Positions 11,974 through 61,121 of a stretch of DNA of 64,000 nt are shown here, in pieces. Positions within the stretch are counted from its first letter, which is position 1; each line of letters starts with the position of its first letter. Location: assembly GCA_002791275.1 (NCBI GenBank), contig PFWT01000006.1, positions 8,831 through 72,830 on the forward strand, given 5' to 3'. This DNA is from Candidatus Uhrbacteria bacterium CG_4_9_14_3_um_filter_41_35. GTDB taxonomy: Bacteria; Patescibacteriota; Patescibacteriia; UBA9934. Made by a program: the position numbers and the translations under genes. The notes beneath the pieces are model-generated. The model was not told the origin of the DNA. It did no database searches and saw nothing but the letters and a program-made list of their open reading frames with translations.

Positions 11974-11993
11974 ATAATAAATAATAAACTTGC

Positions 11994-12018
11994 AAATCAA
12001 ATCAAATCAAATCAAATC
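11994..12018 (+). repeat. (AAATC)5 pentanucleotide microsatellite; 3 perfect units in copy 2
   Basis: aaatcaaatcaaatcaaatcaaatc read directly from the sequence. Confidence 0.9.
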
Positions 12019-12116
12019 AAACCGTAACCCAGGCCTTGACTAGGGTCAATCAGTAAATTAACAAAGCTCTTTTCGTGACCTAAAACCTAACGCCCAATTC
12101 CTAACTCCTATAATAC

Positions 12117-16924: not shown

Positions 16925-18586
16925 TTAATCTTTACCCTCTTCCAGGGTAATCGCATTAATCGCGTCCGAGGTTCGGTTATAGATTTTTCCGTCAACTTGT
17001 TTTTGTTTATAAAAATCTTTTTTATAAATTAGTTTCTCAACCTCCTTGTTAATCCCTGAAAGCAAGATATGTTTGTTCTTATTTTTCTTTAAGGCGGAGA
17101 TGAATTCACCAAGATAATCTATACCGTCAATGTCAGCGTAAAATGAATATCTAAGTGAAACAATTACATAATTATTGTTACGAATTTTTTCGGCCGCCTC
17201 GAGGTGGGCCGGCATATTTATGTAAGTCATAGTTCCTGAAATTTTGTACACAACCACATCCGAATCTACCACTTCTTTTTTCAAAAATTCATTCTTCAGT
17301 AATGCTTCGGTTATGGCACCATTTTTCCAAAGCAAAACCTCAGTTTGACCGTACGAAAGCTTATTTACAAAAATTAGGAGCGCAATTACTGTACCAATCA
17401 AAATCCCGATAATCGGGTCCTCCACCACCACAATTATTGCCACAAAAAGTGAAAGCGCAAATGCAATTTTTTCGTTTTCGATAAGGTGGATGAAGTGTTT
17501 TTTTTCTACCATCCTGATCGCCACCACTACTAAAATTGAGGCAATCGCTACCATTGGTAGTAATTTGAAAAAATCGATAAAAAAGATCGCAATTACACCA
17601 ACCGCTATTGCGCTCACTAGTCCCGAGGATTTGTGTGTTGCGCCGCTTTTTATGTTTAACGCAGTTCTAGCTAGTGCCGCCGTGGCTGGAATTCCGCCCA
17701 TTAAACCCGAACCGATGTTAGCAATTGAAAGACCAAGGACTTCTTTGCGGTGATCAAATTTACTGTCGGTCATATTGTCCGCAATTTGCCCAGAAAGCAG
17801 GGTTTCAAGGATGGCAATAATTGCTGTCGCAATTGCCAACTGCCAGATTTCTTTGCTAAGCAAAATACTTAGGGAAAACTGCGCTAGTGGATTTTCAAAC
17901 AGTGTGGCGTGAATTGAAGGATATTTATCACCGAGCGTTAGAATAGCTGGTGTGTAACCAAGTGCTGGCAGTGCCAGCATAAGAGCGATCGATACAAAAG
18001 CGGCTATCGCAGAACCTGGGACTTTTGGAAATTTTTTATCCCAAACAATTATAAACATTGTGCAGAAAATAAAGATCAACAAAACTTGCCAGTTAGTTTT
18101 TTCTAAATTTTGTAAAAGTAGGTGAGTATTGCCAAGTACACTTTCGACTTTGTCTAAACCAGTTATCCCAAGGGCGTTGTCGAGCTGACCGAGGCCGATA
18201 ATAAAAGCCACCCCGAGCGTAAAACCGTGAACAATCGCCCGCGGGATGAAAATAATATATTTATCTAGATGAAAAATGTAAGCGATAAAAATTAGCAACC
18301 CAGAAAGCACCGCTACAACCGGGAGAACTTGGTAACCATTAATTAAAGCATAGGACCCTAAAATTCCCGACAGCGCCCCAGTTGGTCCGACAATGTTGTA
18401 ATTACTGCTTCCAACTACTGCCGCCAACAAACCCGCCCAAAATGCAGTAATAATCCCCTGAGTCGGCGTTGCGCCCGAAGTGATTGCAAGCGCCAGAGCC
18501 AGCGGGATACTAACAATACTCACAGTTAAGCCCGATTTCCAGTTCCGACCCACAGACTTTACCAAATCTAAAGTGTTAGAAAACAT
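16925..18586 (-). CDS. SulP family inorganic anion (sulfate) transporter with C-terminal STAS domain
   Basis: N-terminal SulP signature (GLTVSIVSIPLALALAITSGATPTQGIITAFWAGLLAAVVGSSNYNIVGPTGALS), multiple TM helices and a C-terminal STAS-like region; 553 aa. Confidence 0.85.
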   Translation of the reverse strand: MFSNTLDLVKSVGRNWKSGLTVSIVSIPLALALAITSGATPTQGIITAFWAGLLAAVVGSSNYNIVGPTGALSGILGSYALINGYQVLPVVAVLSGLLIFIAYIFHLDKYIIFIPRAIVHGFTLGVAFIIGLGQLDNALGITGLDKVESVLGNTHLLLQNLEKTNWQVLLIFIFCTMFIIVWDKKFPKVPGSAIAAFVSIALMLALPALGYTPAILTLGDKYPSIHATLFENPLAQFSLSILLSKEIWQLAIATAIIAILETLLSGQIADNMTDSKFDHRKEVLGLSIANIGSGLMGGIPATAALARTALNIKSGATHKSSGLVSAIAVGVIAIFFIDFFKLLPMVAIASILVVVAIRMVEKKHFIHLIENEKIAFALSLFVAIIVVVEDPIIGILIGTVIALLIFVNKLSYGQTEVLLWKNGAITEALLKNEFLKKEVVDSDVVVYKISGTMTYINMPAHLEAAEKIRNNNYVIVSLRYSFYADIDGIDYLGEFISALKKNKNKHILLSGINKEVEKLIYKKDFYKQKQVDGKIYNRTSDAINAITLEEGKD

Positions 18587-18697
18587 AAATGAAAATTTTG
18601 AATAGATGTTATTATTAAACCTACTAAGCTTAGAGTATTTTCATTATATAGTCAATTTATATTTTACTGGGATAAAAATTTGCATTATTTGTATTTT

Positions 18698-21600
18698 TTA
18701 TAGATTTTTAGCCGAAATATCGAAGAATCGTTCAAAGAAACTTGTTAGCTTATTTAAAACATTTTCTCGTTTTTTGCCATAACCGCCATCAGGAGAAAAA
18801 CGAGATGGGCGATTTATCATTATTTTACTAATTACAGTACCGGTTGTCGCTACATTTCCGTCTCTAAAAGCATTATTTATGAATTTGTAGGTAGCTTCTG
18901 GGTCAAGGTTTTCATTTTCAATTATTTTGTTGAGTTCTTCAATTTTCTTTTCTTCTACAAATTTTTGCCAATCTTCATCAATGATTGAATGAACATCAAG
19001 AGAAGTAATAAATTTATTGATAAGATCTTTTTTATTTCGGAGTTCAACACTAGAATCAATGGCTTTATTAATATCAACTAAAAGCTCTTTGTTTTTAGTA
19101 TGATCTTCATGATAGTGCTTAATAAGACCTAGAACATAATCAATATTAATTTCTACTTGTTTAATAAGCTCCATTTCAAAGACCACATCGTCATTAACAT
19201 TTTCTTTTTCTCCCTCTTCACCTTTACGAAATTCATTATATAAATCAATGTACATGCTATGGTAATCTTGCACATCACGCTCAGTCAAAATTTCATTTCC
19301 TGCAAATTCATCAAAAGTTGTAAGGATGTTTCGGACACGCAAAACCGCTCCGTATGATCTAATAAAATCTGTTTGAATCTGCTCTCCTACAATCCTTTCT
19401 CCTACCGGGAAATTTTCCAAAAGCTCATCAATCAAACTTTTGTATCCTCGGACTTCTTTATCGTCGTCTTTATAACCATTGTAATAGTCATTATAAGCTT
19501 TAAGAAGAACAATCCCACTGGCTTCCTTATCTCCAAAAAGTGCAATAGATTCGTTTGTCGCTTTTTCTAAATTGCGAAAACAAACAATATTTCCAAAGGT
19601 TTTTACACTATTCAAAATACGATTAGTTCTAGAAAATGCTTGAAGTAAACCATGCAAACGCAAGTTTTTATCTACCCAAATGGTATTCAGAGTTGTAGCA
19701 TCAAATCCAGTCAAAAACATGTTTACTACAATCAGAATATCAATTTCTCTATTTTTAACTCGCTCACTAACATCTTTGTAATAGTTTTGAAATTTATCTG
19801 ACGAAGTATCATAAGAAGTGCCAAACATTTTATTGTAATCACTAATGGCATTTTCAAGAAAATCTCGAGAACTAATATCAAGTCCGCTTGTATCTTCAGA
19901 ATTTTCATCAATCATTCCGTCCGCGTCTTCATCATTTACTCCAAAACTAAAAATTGTTGCTATTTTAAGTCGTTTATCGCTAGGTTCGTCGGCTAATTGT
20001 TTTTTAAATTCAAGATAATACTTTTTTGCCACATCAATAGAAGAAACGGCGAAAATTGAATTAAAGCCCGCTAGTCTGCGATCCTGTATTTTATAAAAAC
20101 TATTTCGTTTGGTTTTTTGGTCAAAGTGTTCCCGAATATATTTCACAATGTTTTCCAGTCGCTCCGGTGCTGAAAGAACAGCCTCGCGATCAATATCACG
20201 AACTTGAGCGTCTTCAATATTTTCCGCTTCATGAACGGTTGAAACATAATCAACTTTAAACGGTAAAACATTTTTGTCAGCAATAGCGTTAACAATTGTA
20301 TAGGTGTGAAGTTTCTCGCCAAAAGCCTGCTCGGTAGTTTTAAAATCAAGCCGACCACCAGATGAAGAATTTACAGCAAAAATAGGCGTGCCAGTAAAAC
20401 CAAATAAATGATATTTACTAAATGCTTTTACAATACTTGCATGCATATCGCCAAATTGCGAACGATGACATTCATCAAAAATTAAAACAATATGACCGTC
20501 AAAAATAGTATGATTTTTATTTTTACTTATAAATCTATCTAATTTTTGAATTGTGGTAACGATTATTCGAGAGTTTGAATCTTCTAACTGTTTTTTTAAT
20601 TTAGCTGTACTCGTATTACTGTTCGCCGCCCCTTTTTCAAATTTATCGTATTCTCGCATTGTTTGATAATCCAAGTCTTTACGATCAACTACAAACAATA
20701 CTTTGTCTATATACGGCAATTTACTAGCCAACTGAGCAGTCTTAAAACTTGTCAAAGTTTTTCCCGATCCGGTTGTATGCCAAACATAACCGCCAGCCTC
20801 AACTGTTCCGAGTTTTTTATAATTTGTACTAACCTCAACCCTGTTCAATATTCGTTCGGTCGCAACAATTTGATATGGCCTCATTACCAAAAGTTGCTTT
20901 TCGGTAGTAAATACGCAATATTTAGTTAGAATATTTAAAATCGTATGCTTAGCAAAAAATGTTTTGGCAAAATCCATTAAATCAGTAATCGGCCGATTGG
21001 TTGCGTCTGCCCACCAGCTCGTAAATTCAAAACTATTGCTCGATTTTTTTCCTTTTTTAATTTTACCCTCGCTTGATTCTTTTATGTGTTGAAATCTGGT
21101 TGTATTGCTGTAATATTTTGTATGAGTTCCGTTTGAGATGATAAATAACTGCACATATTCAAAAAGTCCGCTGGAAGCCCAAAAACTTTCTCGTTGATAA
21201 CGATTAATTTGATTAAATGCTTCGGAAATAGCAACTCCACGGCGTTTTAACTCAATATGAATAAGAGGTAGTCCATTCACAAGTACCGTCACATCATAAC
21301 GATTAGCCCGCTGTCCGTCTTCGGTCGTATATTGATTAATTACTTGCAGGCTATTATTATGGACATTTTTCTTATCTATCAAGTCTATATTTTTAAAAGT
21401 TCCGTCATCTCGGTCTAATATTTTCGTGCTGTCTTCTTGAATAGTAGTGGTTTTTTCTTCAATACTCTGATTTGGATTAGCGATAACACTCACAAAAAAC
21501 TTTTCCCATTCAGTATCTGAAAAAGTAAAATTATTTAATTTTTCCAGCTGCTGACGCAAGTTTAACACCAATTCATTTTCTGAAGTGATATTCAAATATT

Positions 21601-21754
21601 CATACGCTTGAGTTTCCAGTTGCTTAATAAAAGCACGCTCAAGCTCGGCCTCACTTTGGTAGTGAGCCACTCTTTTTTCATCAGACACATACTCGGAAAC
21701 AACCGTGCTTTGTGTGCTTTCAGCGACTAAATTGTATTTGTTCTTATTTGGCAT
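18698..21754 (-). CDS. hsdR: Type I restriction enzyme R subunit (HsdR), type IC (EcoR124I-like)
   Basis: 1018 aa with DEAD-box helicase motifs (GSGKTLTSFK; FVVDRKDLDYQT; DECHRSQFG) and the PD-(D/E)xK nuclease region (NRYDVTVLVNGLPLIHIELKRRG). Long colinear identity to EcoR124I HsdR as recalled from memory. 11-bp overlap with hsdS. Confidence 0.95.
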   Translation of the reverse strand: MPNKNKYNLVAESTQSTVVSEYVSDEKRVAHYQSEAELERAFIKQLETQAYEYLNITSENELVLNLRQQLEKLNNFTFSDTEWEKFFVSVIANPNQSIEEKTTTIQEDSTKILDRDDGTFKNIDLIDKKNVHNNSLQVINQYTTEDGQRANRYDVTVLVNGLPLIHIELKRRGVAISEAFNQINRYQRESFWASSGLFEYVQLFIISNGTHTKYYSNTTRFQHIKESSEGKIKKGKKSSNSFEFTSWWADATNRPITDLMDFAKTFFAKHTILNILTKYCVFTTEKQLLVMRPYQIVATERILNRVEVSTNYKKLGTVEAGGYVWHTTGSGKTLTSFKTAQLASKLPYIDKVLFVVDRKDLDYQTMREYDKFEKGAANSNTSTAKLKKQLEDSNSRIIVTTIQKLDRFISKNKNHTIFDGHIVLIFDECHRSQFGDMHASIVKAFSKYHLFGFTGTPIFAVNSSSGGRLDFKTTEQAFGEKLHTYTIVNAIADKNVLPFKVDYVSTVHEAENIEDAQVRDIDREAVLSAPERLENIVKYIREHFDQKTKRNSFYKIQDRRLAGFNSIFAVSSIDVAKKYYLEFKKQLADEPSDKRLKIATIFSFGVNDEDADGMIDENSEDTSGLDISSRDFLENAISDYNKMFGTSYDTSSDKFQNYYKDVSERVKNREIDILIVVNMFLTGFDATTLNTIWVDKNLRLHGLLQAFSRTNRILNSVKTFGNIVCFRNLEKATNESIALFGDKEASGIVLLKAYNDYYNGYKDDDKEVRGYKSLIDELLENFPVGERIVGEQIQTDFIRSYGAVLRVRNILTTFDEFAGNEILTERDVQDYHSMYIDLYNEFRKGEEGEKENVNDDVVFEMELIKQVEINIDYVLGLIKHYHEDHTKNKELLVDINKAIDSSVELRNKKDLINKFITSLDVHSIIDEDWQKFVEEKKIEELNKIIENENLDPEATYKFINNAFRDGNVATTGTVISKIMINRPSRFSPDGGYGKKRENVLNKLTSFFERFFDISAKNL

Positions 21755-22865
21755 ATTCTTTTTCTTTGAAAGTTAAAAGTTTCCCGCGGTAATATTCATA
21801 TTGCTGTCTGCGAGCTTTGAGTTCAGCGGGAAGACCGATTGAAATGTCATTTACAAGTGCATCAAATTTGTCGAGGATTGAAACTATTCTTTTTTGTTCG
21901 GTAAGTGGAGGTGTTGGGATTTTTATTTGATTTAAAATTGCCTGAGTTAAACTTGGACGTCCTGATCCTGTATCCAATTTCATTAAATCAACAGTTTTCA
22001 AATAGTGAAATAAAAACTTTGGAATAATTTTTTCTTCGTTTATTTCAGTATAATAAATAGTATCTACATTCCAAAACGGATCCTCTAAATAGTAAAGGTT
22101 TGTAATACTTCCTTTTCTTGGAATTAAAACAGTAGGCTTATCGTAGACCGATTTATTTACATAACCCATAACCCCTCCTGTGCCATAAACAGGAATTTTA
22201 CCATTTCCTAACTTCTTCCAGTCTTTTCCATTCTTAATCTTTGCAACACCTTGTAGTAAATCCCATTTTGAATTCGCATCAAAAGTCAACAACTCATTGC
22301 GATAATGCTCATACTGCTTTTTTCTTGCTTCCAGTTCTGCTTCCAGTTCTGCTTCCAGTTCTGCTTCCAGTTCTGTAAAACTATTAAGAATTTTAACAAT
22401 TTCTTCTTGGATGGCAAGAGGTGGGATGGGGATTAAAGTTTTTTTCAGAAAACTAAAGTGTCTTGTGTATTTACCTGTTTTTGAATAAAAATTATTTAAA
22501 GCATAGTAAAAATATTTTATATTTAATATATTTGAATTTGTTTTTAGAATTTTAATACCGTCCGCCCCTTGAGCAAAAGAAAAATCAATATATTTTAGTG
22601 CCTCAGTGTGGTCTCCGAAAATAACATATAAATCTTTAGCCATAACTGCAGCATTATCATCAGTATAGCCAACAATAAAATCTTGTCCTTGATCTATGAT
22701 AGGAAATTCACCTATTTCCTTGTAGTATTTTTTTGTAAGCTTTTTAGGAGGAGCACAGGTTGTTACGATTTTATTTATAAGCAAATTATCAATATCAAAA
22801 AACTCCACACCTGCTGGGCATAGTTCTGAGATTAGTTTTTCGATTTTTGGTTGGTTGGTTGTCAT
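21744..22865 (-). CDS. hsdS: Type I restriction-modification specificity subunit (HsdS), type IC-like with (ELEA)4 central repeat
   Basis: Two target-recognition halves, each ending in a conserved coiled-coil (ELEARKKQYEHYRNELLTF and ELKARRQQYEYYRGKLLTF). A central tandem 4-aa repeat TELEAELEAELEAELEA is encoded by a 12-bp DNA repeat. 373 aa. Confidence 0.85.
   Translation of the reverse strand: MTTNQPKIEKLISELCPAGVEFFDIDNLLINKIVTTCAPPKKLTKKYYKEIGEFPIIDQGQDFIVGYTDDNAAVMAKDLYVIFGDHTEALKYIDFSFAQGADGIKILKTNSNILNIKYFYYALNNFYSKTGKYTRHFSFLKKTLIPIPPLAIQEEIVKILNSFTELEAELEAELEAELEARKKQYEHYRNELLTFDANSKWDLLQGVAKIKNGKDWKKLGNGKIPVYGTGGVMGYVNKSVYDKPTVLIPRKGSITNLYYLEDPFWNVDTIYYTEINEEKIIPKFLFHYLKTVDLMKLDTGSGRPSLTQAILNQIKIPTPPLTEQKRIVSILDKFDALVNDISIGLPAELKARRQQYEYYRGKLLTFKEKEYAK
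22321..22385 (-). repeat. 12-bp tandem repeat (ttccagttctgc)x4 plus a degenerate fifth unit inside hsdS; encodes ELEA repeats in the central spacer-length-determining region
   Basis: Direct reading: cttgc TTCCAGTTCTGC x4 TTCCAGTTCTGT. Confidence 0.9.
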
Positions 22866-24328
22866 ACTAATAATGGAATTAAAGATTCAATGGAAGTTTT
22901 AAGTTCTTCATCTGTAAATTTTGTATTATTTGGATTTTCGGGGTGGTGAATTATATTTCTAATTTTAGTGGGTAAGGTAGTATTGTATTCAATAACGGTT
23001 TTGTCTGACTTTAAATGTTTATACTTTTTGTCTATTTTAATAGCTTCACCACTTTTATTAAAAAGATATTTATCAAAATCTTCTGATTTACAATATTTCT
23101 CGTCTTCTAAAATAGCTTTTGCTTGAATAAAACCATAAAGCTCGTTGTGAAATTCAACAGATAAAACGCCAAACGCATAATAATTAATTTCCCCCCAAGA
23201 AGGACTTGAGGATCCAAACAAATCGAATTCATTGCCAGCTTCAACTTTGTTCATTCCTGAATCTTTTGAGAATATATTCATTGAATGGGTTTCTTTTTTA
23301 TATTTTTTCAATAAATATGGTGAGTGAGTAATTATAAAAATTTGTGACTTGTCGGATATTTTTTCAAGGGCGTCAAGAAGTTTGTTTTGAGCTTGCGGAT
23401 GTAAAAAAGTTTCTGGCTCATCAATAAAAAATAGTATTGGTTTAGAAATTCCGTTTTCATCTGATGAAGAAATATCAGCATACACTTGAATAAGTGCTAA
23501 TGCTAAGGCTCGTTGCATTCCTGTACCTTTTTCAGAACTTTTTGTTTCAATGCCATTTTCAGATAGAGCAATATTCCCCGTTTTGAAAAAACTCTCAATT
23601 TCAGGTAATAAAAAACTAAATCTTACTTCTGTTTCTCCGTACTGTTCAGACAAAATACTTTGTATTTTTTGTTCAACTGGTTGTAGCGTTTTAGCTAAAC
23701 TATTTTCGCCCTCTCCAAAAGTTTCTTTATGAGAATTTTGAAAATTTCTCCAAGTATCAGAAGTAATAAAATCTTTTGTTATCGTATTTATAATTTTTCC
23801 GCTAATTTTTGTTTTTGAAAAATCAGAAATATCACCAGAATTTGTATCAGCCCAAACAAACTGTGCATCAAAAAGTGCCGTAATTGTATTATCTATTCCT
23901 GTAGGATTCTCAAATTGGTTTGCAGTTGGATTAAACACACGAACATTTTTAATATCAAGCTTCTTTTTCTTTCCGTCTTGTGTAATTTCTTTTTCTTCGC
24001 TAGAACGCATTATGCGTAAACTTTTTTCACCATTAGTATCAATGAGGGAAGATTTATATTTTTTTAAGGCATCTATTTCAACAATAGATTCAATATCCTC
24101 ACCTTTGAATTCAATTTCAATAGAAACAAAACTATCTGTTTCAATTTCTGTCTTAGTGATGACTTCACTTCTATCCTTTTTTGAGCGTATAAAGTCAATA
24201 GCTTCAAAAACTGATGATTTGCCACAATTATTGTCACCAACAAAAAAATTCACGCCTTTGTCAAAAAGAATTTCGTGATCACCTTTAAAGCCTTTAAAAT
24301 TATGGAGTTTTATTTTTGATATATACAT
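22862..24328 (-). CDS. ABC-type ATPase fused to a C-terminal HEPN-like (Rx4H) domain; PrrC/RloC-like putative anticodon nuclease / restriction-linked abortive-infection protein
   Basis: Walker A FVGDNNCGKSS, ABC-signature-like SEKGTGMQRA, Walker B PILFFIDEPETFLH and H-loop IITHSP. The ~145-aa C-terminal domain carries KIRNIIHHPENPN (R-x4-H). 4-bp overlap with the hsdS start. 488 aa. Confidence 0.55.
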   Translation of the reverse strand: MYISKIKLHNFKGFKGDHEILFDKGVNFFVGDNNCGKSSVFEAIDFIRSKKDRSEVITKTEIETDSFVSIEIEFKGEDIESIVEIDALKKYKSSLIDTNGEKSLRIMRSSEEKEITQDGKKKKLDIKNVRVFNPTANQFENPTGIDNTITALFDAQFVWADTNSGDISDFSKTKISGKIINTITKDFITSDTWRNFQNSHKETFGEGENSLAKTLQPVEQKIQSILSEQYGETEVRFSFLLPEIESFFKTGNIALSENGIETKSSEKGTGMQRALALALIQVYADISSSDENGISKPILFFIDEPETFLHPQAQNKLLDALEKISDKSQIFIITHSPYLLKKYKKETHSMNIFSKDSGMNKVEAGNEFDLFGSSSPSWGEINYYAFGVLSVEFHNELYGFIQAKAILEDEKYCKSEDFDKYLFNKSGEAIKIDKKYKHLKSDKTVIEYNTTLPTKIRNIIHHPENPNNTKFTDEELKTSIESLIPLLV

Positions 24329-24337
24329 AATTTTTAA

Positions 24338-24420
24338 TGATTTTTTTCAATATCCGCCATAATCTCATCAATCGCCGTCCTAAGCTCATTTTGCCCCACT
24401 GCAATTTTTAATTTCGCGTT
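24338..24420 (-). pseudogene. 3'-terminal remnant of an hsdM gene (encodes ...KIAVGQNELRTAIDEIMADIEKNH*); there is no start codon, and a stop lies a few codons upstream
   Basis: Nucleotide and peptide similarity to the 3' end of the intact hsdM at 25487.. (IVARQNELRNAIDEIVVDIEGTN*). It has the same spacing to the downstream gene start as hsdM has to dinD. Confidence 0.65.
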
Positions 24421-24628
24421 TGTTATATTATATTTCAGCCATTTTACAAGCTAACTGAATCTCTTCATCTTGGCTTTCTAACCACAGATCAACGTCTAAC
24501 TTATGTTCAGTTTTATTTTGGCTAATCATCTCCAATACAGGTTTTTTGTATTTAGATCAATAAATTTGGCACCATTATTGTCCTCAAAGAATTTTAATAC
24601 GTTTTCTACATTTATTGGATTTTTCATA

Positions 24629-25477
24629 TTATCCTTCATTATCCTTTAAAAATTTTTTATCATCATTCCCAAGATAGTTTTTCTCACTAATTACACTTCT
24701 ACCAAGCTCTTTTTCAGTTTCCTTCCTCGCGTTGCCTGCCACCTTACCACCTCTTTTGGCTACTCTTTTACTTTCAGTAATTCCTTTTGGTTTTTCTTGA
24801 CTCGATATTTCCGTGGTAACTTTTTCGCCAAGCATTGTAAAAATAAGCTCGAGATCCGTCATATTGTCTCTAAGATTTGCCTTAGATTTATCGGGAATAT
24901 TTTTGAGCTTCATATATTCGCTCGGCGTCATTCCAAAAGTCGCTTTGCTGATTTCTGCGGTCAAAATAGCATAGTCTCTTTGCTCTGTGATTCCTCTCTG
25001 TTTCCATTCATCCGTTAAATTTTGACGGATAGCAATTCCACGAAGTCTTTTGTCTATCCAATCTTGAGGATAGCCCTTTGCTTCATAGAGCTTTTTCATT
25101 CTTTCTTGGGCCAGTTCTGGATTTTCTATTTCCTCGATTCTTTCATAACCCACTTTGGCAAGCCACCTTTTGAAAGGTTCAGCTTTTGGAGAAGGGATGG
25201 ACTGGATAATTCTTAAAATCCCTTCAGTATTTGCACAATCTGTTTCTCTCATTTTTCCGTCTGGTGCAAGGAGTTTCAACCCGTGACAAAATGTCACGAC
25301 TTCACTTCCTTCTTCATTAAGTCTCTGTTTTAATTTTCTCCAATAAGCTCCCGCATCAGGACTTTCTGTAAGAGCAAAACATATATCAACGACCGAAAAA
25401 TACCATTCTTCATTATGCCAAATTTTACGAATTTGTTTTTTTTCAAACAGTGCGATTTTGTTGTGAGTATTTGCCAT
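24629..25477 (-). CDS. DinD-like / Bro-N domain protein (DNA-damage-inducible protein D family)
   Basis: N-terminal Bro-N-like segment (KIALFEKKQIRKIWHNEEWYFSVVDICFAL). The C-terminal region (KSKANLRDNMTDLELIFTMLGEKVTTEI; basic tail KRVAKRGGKVAGNARKE) resembles E. coli DinD as recalled from memory. 282 aa, 9 bp downstream of hsdM. Confidence 0.6.
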   Translation of the reverse strand: MANTHNKIALFEKKQIRKIWHNEEWYFSVVDICFALTESPDAGAYWRKLKQRLNEEGSEVVTFCHGLKLLAPDGKMRETDCANTEGILRIIQSIPSPKAEPFKRWLAKVGYERIEEIENPELAQERMKKLYEAKGYPQDWIDKRLRGIAIRQNLTDEWKQRGITEQRDYAILTAEISKATFGMTPSEYMKLKNIPDKSKANLRDNMTDLELIFTMLGEKVTTEISSQEKPKGITESKRVAKRGGKVAGNARKETEKELGRSVISEKNYLGNDDKKFLKDNEG

Positions 25478-25486
25478 ATTACTATT

Positions 25487-27064
25487 TTAGTTAGTTCCTT
25501 CAATATCCACCACAATCTCATCAATCGCATTTCGAAGCTCATTTTGCCTTGCGACAATTTGGGAAATTTTACTGTTAAGTTCTTTTATATCAATTATTTC
25601 GCGAGTATCTTCTGCTACTACATAACTTGATACTGCAATATTATAATCATTTTCGCTAATAGTTTTATTATCCACCAGTTTTGCAAAATACTCTGTGTCT
25701 TTACGCTCAATAAACGCATTAAGAATTTTTTTGCGATTTTCTTCACTTAATTTGTTTTTATTTCCACCTCGCACAAATTCTTTAGAAGCGTCTATAAACA
25801 AAGTCTTATTATCTTTTTTACTTTTTTTCAATATAACAACACAGGTTGCGATAGTTGTTCCGAAAAAGAGATCGGGCGGTAATTGTATAACTGAATCTAT
25901 GTAGTTATTATCAATCAAATATTTACGGATTTTTTGTTCAGCTCCACCACGATAAAGAACCCCCGGAAATTCAACAATTGCCGCGGTTCCGCTGGTTGAG
26001 AGCCAAGAAAGCATGTGCATGGTAAACGCTAGATCTGCCTTGCTTTTTGGTGCCAAAACTCCTGCGGGAGAAAAACGAGGATCATTTATTATTAAAGGAT
26101 TGGCATCGCCGTCCCACTTGATTGAATATGGCGGATTGGAAACAATGGCGTCAAAAGGTTCATCGTCCCAGTGTTTTGGATCAGTAAGAGTATCACCATG
26201 GGCAATATCAAAATTGTTATAATTGATATCATGCAAAAACATGTTTATACGGCAGAGGTTGTAGGTAGTGAGGTTTATTTCCTGTCCGTAGAAACCAAGA
26301 CGAACATTGTCTTTACCGAGCACTTTTGCAAATTTAAGAAGAAGTGAACCGGAACCGCAACAAGGATCATAAACTTTATTTACTTCTGTTTTACCAACGG
26401 TTGTAATTTCAGCCAAAAGTTCACTTACTTCTTGAGGGGTAAAAAATTCTCCTCCAGATTTACCAGCATTTGAAGCATACATGGTCATCAAAAATTCATA
26501 AGCATCACCGAAAGCGTCAATTGTGTTATCTCCATAATCACCCAAGCGAAGATCACCGATAGCTTCTAACAGTTTTACAAGTTTTTGATTTCTTTTCTCA
26601 ACTGTTCCGCCTAGCTTATTTGAGTTCACATCCAAGTCATCAAACAATCCTTTAAGATCGTCTTCGCTATCAAATCCTTTGGCAGAATTTTCGATATTAT
26701 CAAAAACCTTAGAAAGTGTTTCGTTAAGCTTTGCATCGCTACGGGCATTTTTATGAACATTTATAAAAAGTTCGCTCGGCAGAATATAAAAACCTTTATT
26801 AATTATTGTTTCTATTCTACCAAATTCCGCTTCTTTATCACTCAACTTAATATAATCAAATTGTTCTTGTCCGAAAACTCGCCTTTCATCTTCATTGATA
26901 AAGTTAGTTAGATTTTCGCTAATGAAACGATAAAAAAGCATTCCAAGAACATACTGTTTAAAATCCCAGCCGTCGACACTTCCTCGCAAGTCATTCGCAA
27001 TTTGCCAAATAGCACGATGTAACTCCGAGCGTTCTTGCTCTTTTGTTGTATTTAAATTTGTCAT
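25487..27064 (-). CDS. hsdM: Type I restriction-modification N6-adenine DNA methyltransferase (HsdM), type IC (EcoR124I-like)
   Basis: Motif I DPCCGSGSLLL and motif IV VSNPPYSIKW. N- and C-terminal regions colinear with EcoR124I HsdM (recalled). 525 aa. Confidence 0.95.
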   Translation of the reverse strand: MTNLNTTKEQERSELHRAIWQIANDLRGSVDGWDFKQYVLGMLFYRFISENLTNFINEDERRVFGQEQFDYIKLSDKEAEFGRIETIINKGFYILPSELFINVHKNARSDAKLNETLSKVFDNIENSAKGFDSEDDLKGLFDDLDVNSNKLGGTVEKRNQKLVKLLEAIGDLRLGDYGDNTIDAFGDAYEFLMTMYASNAGKSGGEFFTPQEVSELLAEITTVGKTEVNKVYDPCCGSGSLLLKFAKVLGKDNVRLGFYGQEINLTTYNLCRINMFLHDINYNNFDIAHGDTLTDPKHWDDEPFDAIVSNPPYSIKWDGDANPLIINDPRFSPAGVLAPKSKADLAFTMHMLSWLSTSGTAAIVEFPGVLYRGGAEQKIRKYLIDNNYIDSVIQLPPDLFFGTTIATCVVILKKSKKDNKTLFIDASKEFVRGGNKNKLSEENRKKILNAFIERKDTEYFAKLVDNKTISENDYNIAVSSYVVAEDTREIIDIKELNSKISQIVARQNELRNAIDEIVVDIEGTN

Positions 27065-27066
27065 AA

Positions 27067-27276
27067 TTATTTAATTAAATCATCTACACCAACACCAAAG
27101 GCATTAGCAATTTTGGTTAGCGTGTCGATAGTAGGATTCTTGTTTGCACCACTCTCAACAGTAACCACGGTATTTAAAGAAAGGTCCGCTAATTTTGAAA
27201 GGCGATCTTGCGAAATACTCTGTTCTACGCGCAATCGTTTAATGTTTTTTCCGATGTTATTTTTAAAATTTTGCAT
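27067..27276 (-). CDS. XRE-family helix-turn-helix transcriptional regulator (69 aa), 3 bp upstream of hsdM
   Basis: HTH_3 pattern IKRLRVEQSISQDRLSKLADLSLNTVVTVESG. Confidence 0.8.
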   Translation of the reverse strand: MQNFKNNIGKNIKRLRVEQSISQDRLSKLADLSLNTVVTVESGANKNPTIDTLTKIANAFGVGVDDLIK

Positions 27277-27385
27277 ACAATATAATGTATAGGTTTTGTT
27301 GAATAATATTACTTTAAATTCCTCCTGTCAAAAAAGTTGTTCCGCCAATAGGTGGAACTCCATATATTATCCTCATCAAAAAAGT

Positions 27386-27488
27386 GTTTCCGTGGTGGAG
27401 CGGAAAAAACCATTTTTCCCCTAATTAAAAGAAAAATAAATTTGAAAATTTGTTAAAACAAGTGGACGCTAGGCGCCACGGAAACTAA
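27386..27488. promoter_or_regulatory. Candidate operator/promoter region upstream of the XRE-hsdM operon, containing inverted repeats gtttccgtggtg / gccacggaaac about 88 bp apart and the near-palindrome gttccgccaataggtggaac (27331..27350)
   Basis: Inverted repeats read directly from the sequence; function inferred. Confidence 0.3.
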
Positions 27489-27548
27489 AAAGAATAGGGC
27501 GCAATGTGGCACGAAACATAACGAAGTAGCAACCCCTAATCACACGCT

Positions 27549-27815
27549 TTAATATGATTTGATCCGCTTTTTCCGTATAGGATAATAGACTACTCCAAAA
27601 ATAATAAACAAAACCCCACTCACAGCAGCAGCCCCTCCAACATATAGAAAAAAACTATCCTCCTCAAATAATTTAATAGCTGCAATGCCAAGAACAAATG
27701 CAGAAAAACCCGTTCTTACATACGCAAGTGTGTTGCGCTCATTGGCAAGAATAGTTCTTTCCTGAGCAAGAAGTTTGTGTGATTCAAACGATTTTTTTAA
27801 ATGATTATTTTCCAT
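27549..27815 (-). CDS. DUF202 (YidH-like) small membrane protein
   Basis: LANERNTLAYVRTG motif followed by two TM helices. The start was chosen at MENNHLKK (the ORF track extends to 27893). Confidence 0.6.
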   Translation of the reverse strand: MENNHLKKSFESHKLLAQERTILANERNTLAYVRTGFSAFVLGIAAIKLFEEDSFFLYVGGAAAVSGVLFIIFGVVYYPIRKKRIKSY

Positions 27816-28406
27816 AATGTTATTGTTTATTGTTTTCTTAATAAAGATTACTGGCAAAGTAGTCATCCTAATCGCGGCTAACACAGTAGCCATCCAACAC
27901 CTTCCGCAGTGAATCCCAAATGGTTCACCGATGATCCGATTTTAGCACAAGCAAAACGAGTGGAAATTTTGGATATGCAGTGCCAATGAACCTGAATTTT
28001 ATTTATTTTTTTGTATAAGGCTCAAACGTCATCCCTTAATTTTATAAAAAGCTTAATCGGATTCATCTGTGTTACTATTCCTTCCGAAATTTTAAAACTC
28101 AGAGATATTAATTGAACACATTATCAAGATCGTTAGATGTAATAAGCGTATCACCTTCAAAGCGGCTTAAATCACGTTTCAGTTCTACTTTTGTCTCCGG
28201 AAATTGCTAAACCGTCAATTATTAATGACCATAAACTGTATCGTTCCTTAATTAATTTAAAAGAGCACACTTGAAATAGTTATCTAAATTATACTACAAG
28301 TTTGCTCGATCTGAAATATAACCAATTAAATATGAGCAATGGAAATATTAAGCACCTGGGAGACGATGTTACGAGCTTAATAATTTTTGATTTTCAAATT
28401 TAACAA

Positions 28407-28436: not shown

Positions 28437-28513
28437 TGGTGGGCGCTGAGGGACTCGAACCCCCGACCCTCTCGGTGTAAACGAGATGCTCTAGCCAGCT
28501 GAGCTAAGCGCCC
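28437..28513 (-). tRNA. tRNA-Val (anticodon TAC), CCA encoded
   Basis: Manual cloverleaf: GGGCGCT-TA-GCTC..GAGC-A-TCTCG-TTTACAC-CGAGA-GGGTC-GGGGG-TTCGAGT-CCCTC-AGCGCCC-A-CCA. Confidence 0.9.
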
Positions 28514-28603: not shown

Positions 28604-28691
28604 GCGCGGGTGGTGGAATTGGTAGACACGCAGGCTTGAGGGGCCTGTGCCTGTAATGGGCGTGGAAGTTCGAGTCTTCTCTCGCGCACCA
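28604..28691 (+). tRNA. tRNA-Leu (anticodon GAG), long variable arm, CCA encoded
   Basis: Manual fold colinear with E. coli tRNA-Leu: GCGCGGG-TG-GTGG-AATTGGTAGACAC-G-CAGGC-TTGAGGG-GCCTG-variable arm-GGAAG-TTCGAGT-CTTCT-CTCGCGC-A-CCA. The ORF 28589..28792(-) overlapping it is spurious. Confidence 0.9.
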
Positions 28692-37504: not shown

Positions 37505-38190
37505 CCGTGATTTTTTGTGTCGTTATTTTGACTAGTCGCCCCGCACCCATACCGTCATCCTGAAGCGAGCGACGATTCACGCTGAAGGATCTCCTTCGCC
37601 CTGTGCTGAACCGACATTTGCTTGGTGATTCGGTAATGAGGTTCTTCGGTGTGATTCACGTTCACCTCAAAATGACGGTTTACTTAGGTTCTTCAATGTA
37701 ACTCACACCAGGCTCTGAATGAGGATATGATGAAATTCTTCGCCGTGATTCATACTAGACTCAGAATTACGGTTTGGTTTTTAGTAGTGCGATGTGATTT
37801 TTATGTCGTTATTTTGACTAGTCACCCCTCACCCATACCGTCATCCTGAAGCGAGCGACGATTCACGCTGAAGGATCTCCTTCGCCCTGTGCTGAATCGA
37901 CATTTGCTTGGTGATTCGGTAATGAGATTCTTCGGTGTGATCCACGTTCACCTCAGAATGACGATTTGGTGCGTTGACTAACTAGTCAATATTGTCATAA
38001 ACAAAAACACAATTCTTGTGAGCATAAAATGCTCACAAACTAAGACTGAGTTGCAGATGCGACTGAGTCGCATCTGCAACTCAGTCTTAGATAATAAAAA
38101 AACACCGCAATCAAATCAAATCAAATCAAATCAAACCGTAACCCAGGTCTTGGCCAGGGTCAATCAGTAAATTTAAAAAGCTCCTTTTAT
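37505..38190 (+). repeat. Composite ORF-free mosaic repeat element, copy 2. It has two ~290/185-bp direct sub-repeats containing the A and B modules, the 8-bp hairpin (38018..38036), the perfect 24-bp-stem hairpin (38040..38090, loop tga), (AAATC)3 and the same conserved tail.
   Basis: Direct comparison with 11172..12075: module B (cacccataccgtcatcctgaagcgagcgacgattcacgctgaaggatctccttcgccctgtgctgaaccgacatttgcttggtgattcggtaatgag) is repeated at 37543 and 37835. The hairpins and tail match copy 1 nearly base for base. Confidence 0.85.
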
Positions 38191-60938: not shown

Positions 60939-61121
60939 TTTATGACTACAAATGCCACCTTCTGGTGGCATTTTTTTATTTGAAAATTATTTAATTCAAA
61001 TAAATAATTTGTTTATTTTATAAGAATTATTAATTTTTGATTTTGTATAAATTAAGTGCTCAAAACTACAAAATCTTATCCCCTTTTTATTCTGAAGAAA
61101 TCACTTTAAATATGGTAAAAT

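Follow-up and report, generated by a model that had tools for sequence, protein, structure and literature searches.

A 12-bp repeat in hsdS as a probable spacer ruler in a type IC-like restriction-modification system of Candidatus Uhrbacteria

[quoted passage not shown] With one more 12-bp unit, the recognition domains of EcoR124 lie about 1 bp further apart (PMC3874165, PMC10030836, PMC7383803), and two or three repeats correlate with spacers of 6 or 7 bp, respectively (PMC10030836). Both linker lengths are active, as EcoR124I and as EcoR124II (PMC3874165), and three TAEL units appear to be optimal (Loenen et al. 2014, PMC3874165). The N-terminal half-dimer of EcoR124I recognises GAAN7TTC (PMC2877798). 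Tetra-amino-acid repeats correlate with spacer length in type IC systems (PMC10030836, PMC3874165), hybrids between EcoR124I and EcoDXXI behave as predicted (PMC3874165), and in the hsdS genes of Mycoplasma pneumoniae the numbers of ELSA/TELS units vary among near-identical strains (PMC8836594). Lineages of the CPR reportedly lack CRISPR-Cas for the most part and depend on restriction-modification and abortive infection (PMC4742961).

Ever since EcoR124I and EcoR124II, textbooks have described the 12-bp repeat of type IC HsdS as a ruler, and we propose no new mechanism. Rather, we extend the known ruler repeat to uncultured Candidatus Uhrbacteria (CPR) and describe a single locus at which, without cultivation, both established ways of altering type I specificity appear to be visible: deletion of one unit, and exchange of the second target-recognition domain at the repeat.

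The hsdS repeat and its genomic setting

The window, by which we mean the whole 64-kb stretch of DNA that was analysed, encodes a GroEL with the same sequence (100% identity) as its counterpart in Candidatus Uhrbacteria bacterium CG_4_9_14_3_um_filter_41_35 (CPR/Patescibacteria); the host population is Candidatus Uhrbacteria from groundwater metagenomes. One of its ORFs is a type I R-M specificity gene, hsdS, with two target-recognition domains (TRD1 and TRD2) and in the company of hsdM and hsdR (Table 1). At its start, hsdS overlaps the stop of the ATPase gene that lies upstream, and at its end the start of hsdR. Because EcoR124 subunits are the best matches of HsdS, HsdM and HsdR alike in phmmer searches of PDB sequences, and because HsdR carries an EcoR124_C domain, we class the R-M system as type IC-like by sequence; the classical definition of the family goes by complementation of subunits, cross-reaction of antibodies and DNA hybridisation. 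The tetra-amino-acid repeat that is a feature of type IC systems (as defined in PMC10030836) is found here too, with (ELEA)4 aligning onto TAELTAEL. We assume from the intact ORFs that the system is active.

Within hsdS, TRF detects 4.2 copies of a 12-bp unit that match at 100% and contain no indels. The unit reads TGCTTCCAGTTC on the plus strand, and translation of the coding strand gives the peptide ELEAELEAELEAELEA. This is the top-scoring tandem repeat of the 64-kb window (score 100; runner-up 67). A probe of two units matches only this tract in the window, and in dinucleotide-preserving shuffles of the sequence it matched in 0 of 100. Ahead of the first unit stands an ACA codon (Thr) that resembles GCA, and on the other side RKKQ is encoded. 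The first-pass annotation had described four in-frame copies encoding (ELEA)4, plus a degenerate fifth, over 22321-22385. The four perfect copies and their translation are borne out by our analysis. The fifth unit is not real, as the period goes on for 2 nt only, and the claimed extent of 65 nt is too wide for a periodic tract of 50 nt. Its placement of the repeat between the two target-recognition domains agrees with the two Pfam Methylase_S matches, one on either side.

An AlphaFold (AF2) model of HsdS, built from 38 sequences and with a mean pLDDT of 89, consists of two beta-rich domains, a helix of residues 150-192 and helices within residues 321-363. The repeat lies inside the single unbroken helix 150-192. 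In the PDB, the fold of this model matches HsdS structures, the best of them being EcoR124I HsdS (7bst_A).

Table 1. Positions of the repeat, the parts of hsdS and the other genes of the R-M cluster in the window
Feature	Position	Strand	Evidence
12-bp tandem repeat, (GAACTGGAAGCA)x4 + 2 nt, encoding (ELEA)4, HsdS residues 165-180	22326..22375	-	TRF, translation, unit count
hsdS, 373-aa specificity subunit	21744..22865	-	ORF list; Pfam Methylase_S x2; EcoR124 HsdS E=2e-42; fold match 7bst_A
Target-recognition domain 1 (TRD1), about aa 20-147	22425..22808	-	AF2 secondary structure; variable block in allele alignment
Central conserved helix, aa 150-192, holding the repeat	22290..22418	-	AF2 model; alignment to EcoR124
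Target-recognition domain 2 (TRD2), about aa 200-317	21915..22268	-	Pfam best stretch 204-350; AF2; block-replaced in L026
C-terminal conserved helices, aa 321-339 and 344-363, kink at GLP	21777..21905	-	Linker alignments, AF2
hsdR, 1018 aa, EcoR124_C domain	18698..21754	-	Pfam PF12008 E=8e-64; TIGR00348 E=5e-170; EcoR124I HsdR E=1e-252
Old-like/AAA_15 (AAA_21) ATPase gene, between hsdM and hsdS, accessory	22862..24328	-	Pfam; PADLOC Old E=2e-51
Bro-N domain gene, between hsdM and ATPase gene, accessory	24629..25477	-	Pfam; PADLOC PDC-S13 E=2e-123
hsdM, 525 aa	25487..27064	-	TIGR00497 E=7e-232; EcoR124 HsdM E=2.7e-186
69-aa HTH gene, directly upstream of hsdM	27067..27276	-	Translation; Pfam HTH_3/HTH_19 precomputed on identical contigs

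The neighbouring genes carry several features of their own. The 69-aa HTH gene ends 2 nt ahead of the hsdM start, and its product may act on the R-M operon as a controller-type regulator. The ATPase matches only the N-terminal 346 of the 578 positions of the PADLOC Old profile, with no match to a Toprim part, and the Bro-N protein matches PDC-S13, a candidate defence family of PADLOC. With an ATPase gene and a Bro-N gene inside it, the operon resembles others that contain restriction-linked genes, for example EcoPrrI with prrC. Because a 76-nt direct repeat of 79% identity (24332..24407 and 25485..25560) duplicates the 3' end of hsdM beyond the Bro-N gene, the sequence suggests that the Bro-N gene came in as a cassette through recombination with another hsdM. 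Small ORFs of 33 aa and 37 aa are called at the region of this repeat on metagenome contigs and are probably remnants of the duplicated hsdM end. In the ATPase gene, a T7 homopolymer (24242..24248, minus strand) lies near codon 27. A metagenome contig (L112/L116; JGI sample 3300025808) has T6 at this place and otherwise no difference from the window over 5.8 kb; the T6 splits the gene into ORFs of 84 aa and 382 aa and could stem from a sequencing error or from ON/OFF variation by frameshift.

The cluster as a whole (about 18000..28000) has a G+C content of 31-36%, against 40-44% in its flanks, and is bordered by a SulP transporter gene on one side and by the genes for tRNA-Val (28437..28513) and tRNA-Leu (28604..28691) on the other. 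Because of this low G+C content and the tRNA-adjoining location, it is consistent with a horizontally acquired island. Elsewhere in the window, there are perfect pentanucleotide repeats outside large ORFs, (CAAAT)5.8 at 11993..12021 and (AATCA)5.4 at 38109..38135, the latter about 120 nt upstream of a gene for a CCA-adding enzyme. TRF also reports an AT-rich 25-nt tandem repeat (2.3 copies, 72% matches) at 60998..61055.

Linker length in homologs and in EcoR124

We scanned 80 genomes from many phyla for homologous linkers and counted linker length between the conserved anchors F and RKKQY. The homologs found are distant, their best segments reaching no more than 75% identity, and the locus of the source species itself is not among them. 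The central linker was 13 aa long in 38 cases, 17 aa in 34 and 9 aa in 5, while the C-terminal linker was 17 aa in 74 of 74. The best 120 protein homologs give a similar picture, with a central linker of 13 or 17 aa and rarely of 9 aa. By these anchored counts, the linker classes of the homologs differ by whole 4-aa units, and the resulting length rule (9, 13 or 17 aa for the central linker, always 17 aa for the C-terminal one) puts the repeat counts of units with unlike sequences on a common scale.

Four perfect units are ordinary among these HsdS homologs, because several genomes share the linker TELEAELEAELEAELEA or have TELTA-type units of equal length. The identical TELEAELEAELEAELEA, with a perfect period of 49-50 nt, is present in L065, L074, L089, L107, L062 and L087, and TELTA-type units with the same linker length are found in other genomes. 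A simple run-length count had pointed to four units as an unusually expanded tract; we rejected this, as the anchored linker is the common 17-aa form. Where two units of the same gene code for the same amino acids, their DNA is identical in 129 of 178 pairs (72%), whereas across genomes the majority units are identical in DNA in 9% (ELEA) and 28% (ELTA). Because units are alike within genes yet differ across genomes, we take the within-gene identity as the mark of units that continue to turn over (concerted evolution) and not of protein-level selection alone.

The comparison with EcoR124 provides a calibration for these lengths. In the phmmer alignment to 7bst_A, F-TELEAELEAELEAELEA-RKKQY of the window (17 aa) stands opposite F-TALTAELTAELNM-RKKQY of EcoR124 (13 aa), and because both F-linker-RKKQY segments are aligned, the ELEA repeat is placed exactly at the TAEL position. 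The analogy to the TAEL repeat that had been drawn at first pass is upheld as regards position, which is homologous by this alignment and in the best fold match. Linker length is 13 aa in EcoR124I, which has two TAEL units and recognises GAAN6RTCG, and 17 aa in EcoR124II, EcoDXXI and EcoPrrI, which have three TAEL units and are all N7. Judged by length, four ELEA units (17 aa) fall into the EcoR124II/EcoDXXI class and three units into the EcoR124I class. The central linker of the window HsdS is also equal in length to its own C-terminal linker (DALVNDISIGLPAELKA, 17 aa). Because spacer length depends on the recognition domains too, as GAAN7TTC of the EcoR124I half-dimer illustrates (PMC2877798), the assignment to N6 or N7 is a calibrated guess. 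By it, the bipartite site of the window allele is predicted to have the longer of the two spacers, N7 provided that the calibration on EcoR124 applies, and a 3-unit allele is predicted to recognise the same half-sites 1 bp closer together (N6 class).

Unit number and recognition domains in metagenome contigs

Because the genome scan returned distant homologs only, we based the within-species comparison on metagenome contigs, which were found by searching for exact matches to the proteins HsdS, ATPase, HsdR, Bro-N and HsdM. The contigs retrieved share 99.7-100% identity with the window. In the index, 37 blocks contain the exact 373-aa HsdS, compared with 41 for hsdR, 41 for hsdM and 44 for the ATPase. 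Among consensus contigs with complete tracts, at least 20 have four units and one has three; the four-unit tracts come from ERZ27293389, ERZ27293392, ERZ27293400, ERZ17912254 and JGI 3300025034, among other samples. This one (L012/L113; ENA ERZ27293359, contig k141_775290) differs from the window by a single 12-nt gap, with 0 mismatches over 9209 nt, and encodes an intact HsdS of 369 aa. We thus find a single instance of two alleles whose sole difference is how many 12-bp units they contain. It is unlikely that the three-unit tract is a collapse artefact, because the contig was assembled with k=141, so that each k-mer spans the full 50-nt tract. At the consensus level the four-unit tract is stable, given one three-unit contig against at least 20 with four, the latter including two slightly diverged strains (L007 and L026, 0.3%) that keep four units.

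Three further contigs (L027 and two that share a sample, L014 and L021) end within the tract, each with 38-39 nt of periodic sequence. We rejected these ends as a sign of read heterogeneity, as 38-39 nt fits an assembler k smaller than the 50-nt tract. The 12.5-kb contig L112 ends 88 nt past the repeat, at the start of TRD2; its last 88 nt correspond to about 22238..22325 of the window. This end may reflect TRD2 alleles that co-exist in the sample; the break point does not match the point at which the alleles diverge. An exact look-up in a protein cluster collection returned no match for synthetic 2-, 3- or 5-unit versions of the protein, nor for the 373-aa HsdS itself.

Additional alleles came from a DNA-pattern scan of JGI metagenomes with a probe that demanded the exact 21-nt flank and the repeat. 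Six alleles with four TRD1 types and four TRD2 types have the identical 21-nt flank and repeat. L024 and L022 combine TRD1 type B with TRD2 type b and have four units, L023 combines C with c and has four units, and L025 combines D with d and has three units, one of them with a synonymous change. L027 has TRD1 B; its contig ends in the tract after three units, so that TRD2 is not covered and the unit count is not determinable. The remaining allele, L026, pairs TRD1 A with TRD2 b and has four units. It is identical to the window across the ATPase gene, TRD1 and the repeat, and identical to the L024 allele from the first codons past the repeat onward, hsdR included. The crossover falls in a 72-nt stretch common to both parents, of which 50 nt are the repeat. 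By this mosaic of identities, L026 is a TRD1-A/TRD2-b recombinant in which the second recognition domain and hsdR were swapped.

A spacer ruler, its alternatives and known systems

Based on these data, we think it probable that the tetra-amino-acid repeat acts as the ruler in this type IC-like HsdS, that it sets the spacer of the recognition site and shifts it when a unit is lost or gained, and that the same tract is also a crossover site. In the mechanism we propose, (ELEA)4 within the long central helix would pair antiparallel with the C-terminal helix, and the helix pair would fix the distance and the twist between the TRDs and hence the length of the non-specific spacer of the bipartite site. 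Four units give a central linker that equals the C-terminal linker and by its length belongs with EcoR124II and EcoDXXI, the N7 class. Slipped-strand mispairing or unequal crossing-over among the identical units could remove or add one unit, which would keep the frame and bring the linker to 13 or 21 aa, and the natural 3-unit allele with its 13-aa linker would have a spacer 1 bp shorter, as EcoR124I has relative to EcoR124II. Together with its conserved flanks, the tract is also DNA in which otherwise divergent hsdS alleles of the community are identical, and TRD2 was exchanged by a crossover at this site. The first-pass interpretation is upheld in essence, with phase-variable switching as a conjecture. 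The reading as a spacer-length switch is supported by homology and by natural variation; the effect on specificity is what we would expect from them, and we likewise infer the mutational mechanism and the rate of unit change.

A more static account would hold that the repeat is a fixed structural coiled-coil spacer at the optimal length of 17 aa, and that the 3-unit contig reflects a misassembly or a rare mutation with neutral or deleterious effect. The constancy of the locus speaks for this: every contig read but one has four units, the diverged L007 and L026 retain them, the number of blocks with the exact HsdS is close to the numbers for its neighbours in the operon, and three TAEL units, the 17-aa class, are apparently optimal (PMC3874165). 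However, linkers of 13 aa and 9 aa are common among intact homologs, so shorter forms function, and both lengths are active in EcoR124I/II (PMC3874165). The homogenised units within genes, which differ across genomes, require ongoing turnover, and the assembly of the 3-unit contig with k=141 makes collapse improbable. We therefore regard a fixed spacer as unlikely. Somewhat easier to entertain, though still the less likely account of the locus, is that the tract is chiefly a recombination cassette, a shared patch of homology for the exchange of recognition domains, with changes in unit number as a by-product. The flank and repeat shared by the six alleles with their diverse TRDs and the L026 hybrid, with its crossover inside the identical stretch made up largely of the repeat, are what such a cassette would leave behind, and both engineered and natural type IC hybrids are known (Gubler et al. 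1992, cited in PMC3874165). Yet a single recombinant was seen, its crossover interval includes 21 nt of non-repeat flank, and the six alleles were selected with an exact-flank probe, so that their shared sequence is partly a selection effect. A role as a cassette is moreover compatible with the ruler function and does not exclude it.

Simple-sequence repeats that frameshift hsdS or hsdM, and hsdS invertons, are known elsewhere (PMC7383803, PMC7672463), and the tract might in principle serve ON/OFF phase variation or belong to a switch that inverts hsdS. We give this next to no credence. The 12-bp unit is divisible by three and its changes stay in frame, as in the intact 3-unit allele, which rules out a frameshifting ON/OFF tract. 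An inverton or shufflon is likewise ruled out: a search of 17-29 kb gave no significant inverted repeats and no second copy of the conserved hsdS regions, and the window holds no second hsdS (the ORF in Table 1 is the sole Methylase_S ORF of the cluster) and no other copy of the 12-bp unit. At the other extreme, the ruler of this CRISPR-poor CPR lineage could belong to a contingency locus that often switches between N6 and N7 and, at the same time, to a community-wide crossover cassette that exchanges half-genes together with hsdR among Patescibacteria. We hold this wider scenario to be distinctly improbable; if true, it would be the principal way in which an ultra-small symbiont diversifies its defences.

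As a ruler repeat, the tract is most readily compared with EcoR124I and EcoR124II (R124 and R124/3). In both cases a 12-bp repeat lies in frame at the same position of the central helix, directly ahead of RKKQY, the HsdM, HsdR and HsdS proteins are homologous, and linker forms of 13 aa and 17 aa occur that are one unit apart. The unit itself is TAEL there and ELEA here, and EcoR124 has partial flanking units (TAL...NM) whereas the 17-aa linker of the window is made up of four perfect units. The window locus also differs in being chromosomal, in belonging to an uncultured Candidatus Uhrbacteria and in having two extra genes between hsdM and hsdS. The type IC HsdS proteins of EcoDXXI, EcoPrrI and NgoAV likewise have tetra-amino-acid repeats (TAEL, LEAT, SEAL, TSEL) in the central conserved region, and the three-TAEL form of EcoDXXI and EcoPrrI has the linker length class of the window, but the repeat sequences are different and the recognition domains are unrelated to those of the window HsdS. 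The operon of EcoPrrI contains prrC, whereas the cluster described here contains the Old-like ATPase and Bro-N genes.

For changes in unit number, the hsdS genes of Mycoplasma pneumoniae offer a parallel, with in-frame 12-bp units that vary in number in near-identical backgrounds. There the differences reach 16 units and many hsdS genes are orphans, whereas here we find only three versus four. For changes in recognition domains, the reassortment of TRDs in StySQ/StySJ (type IA) and in EcoR124I x EcoDXXI hybrids (type IC) resembles L026, a hybrid of two alleles that co-occur, in that the junction lies in the central conserved region (PMC3874165). Unlike these hybrids, L026 comes from an environmental CPR population, and its hsdR was exchanged along with TRD2.
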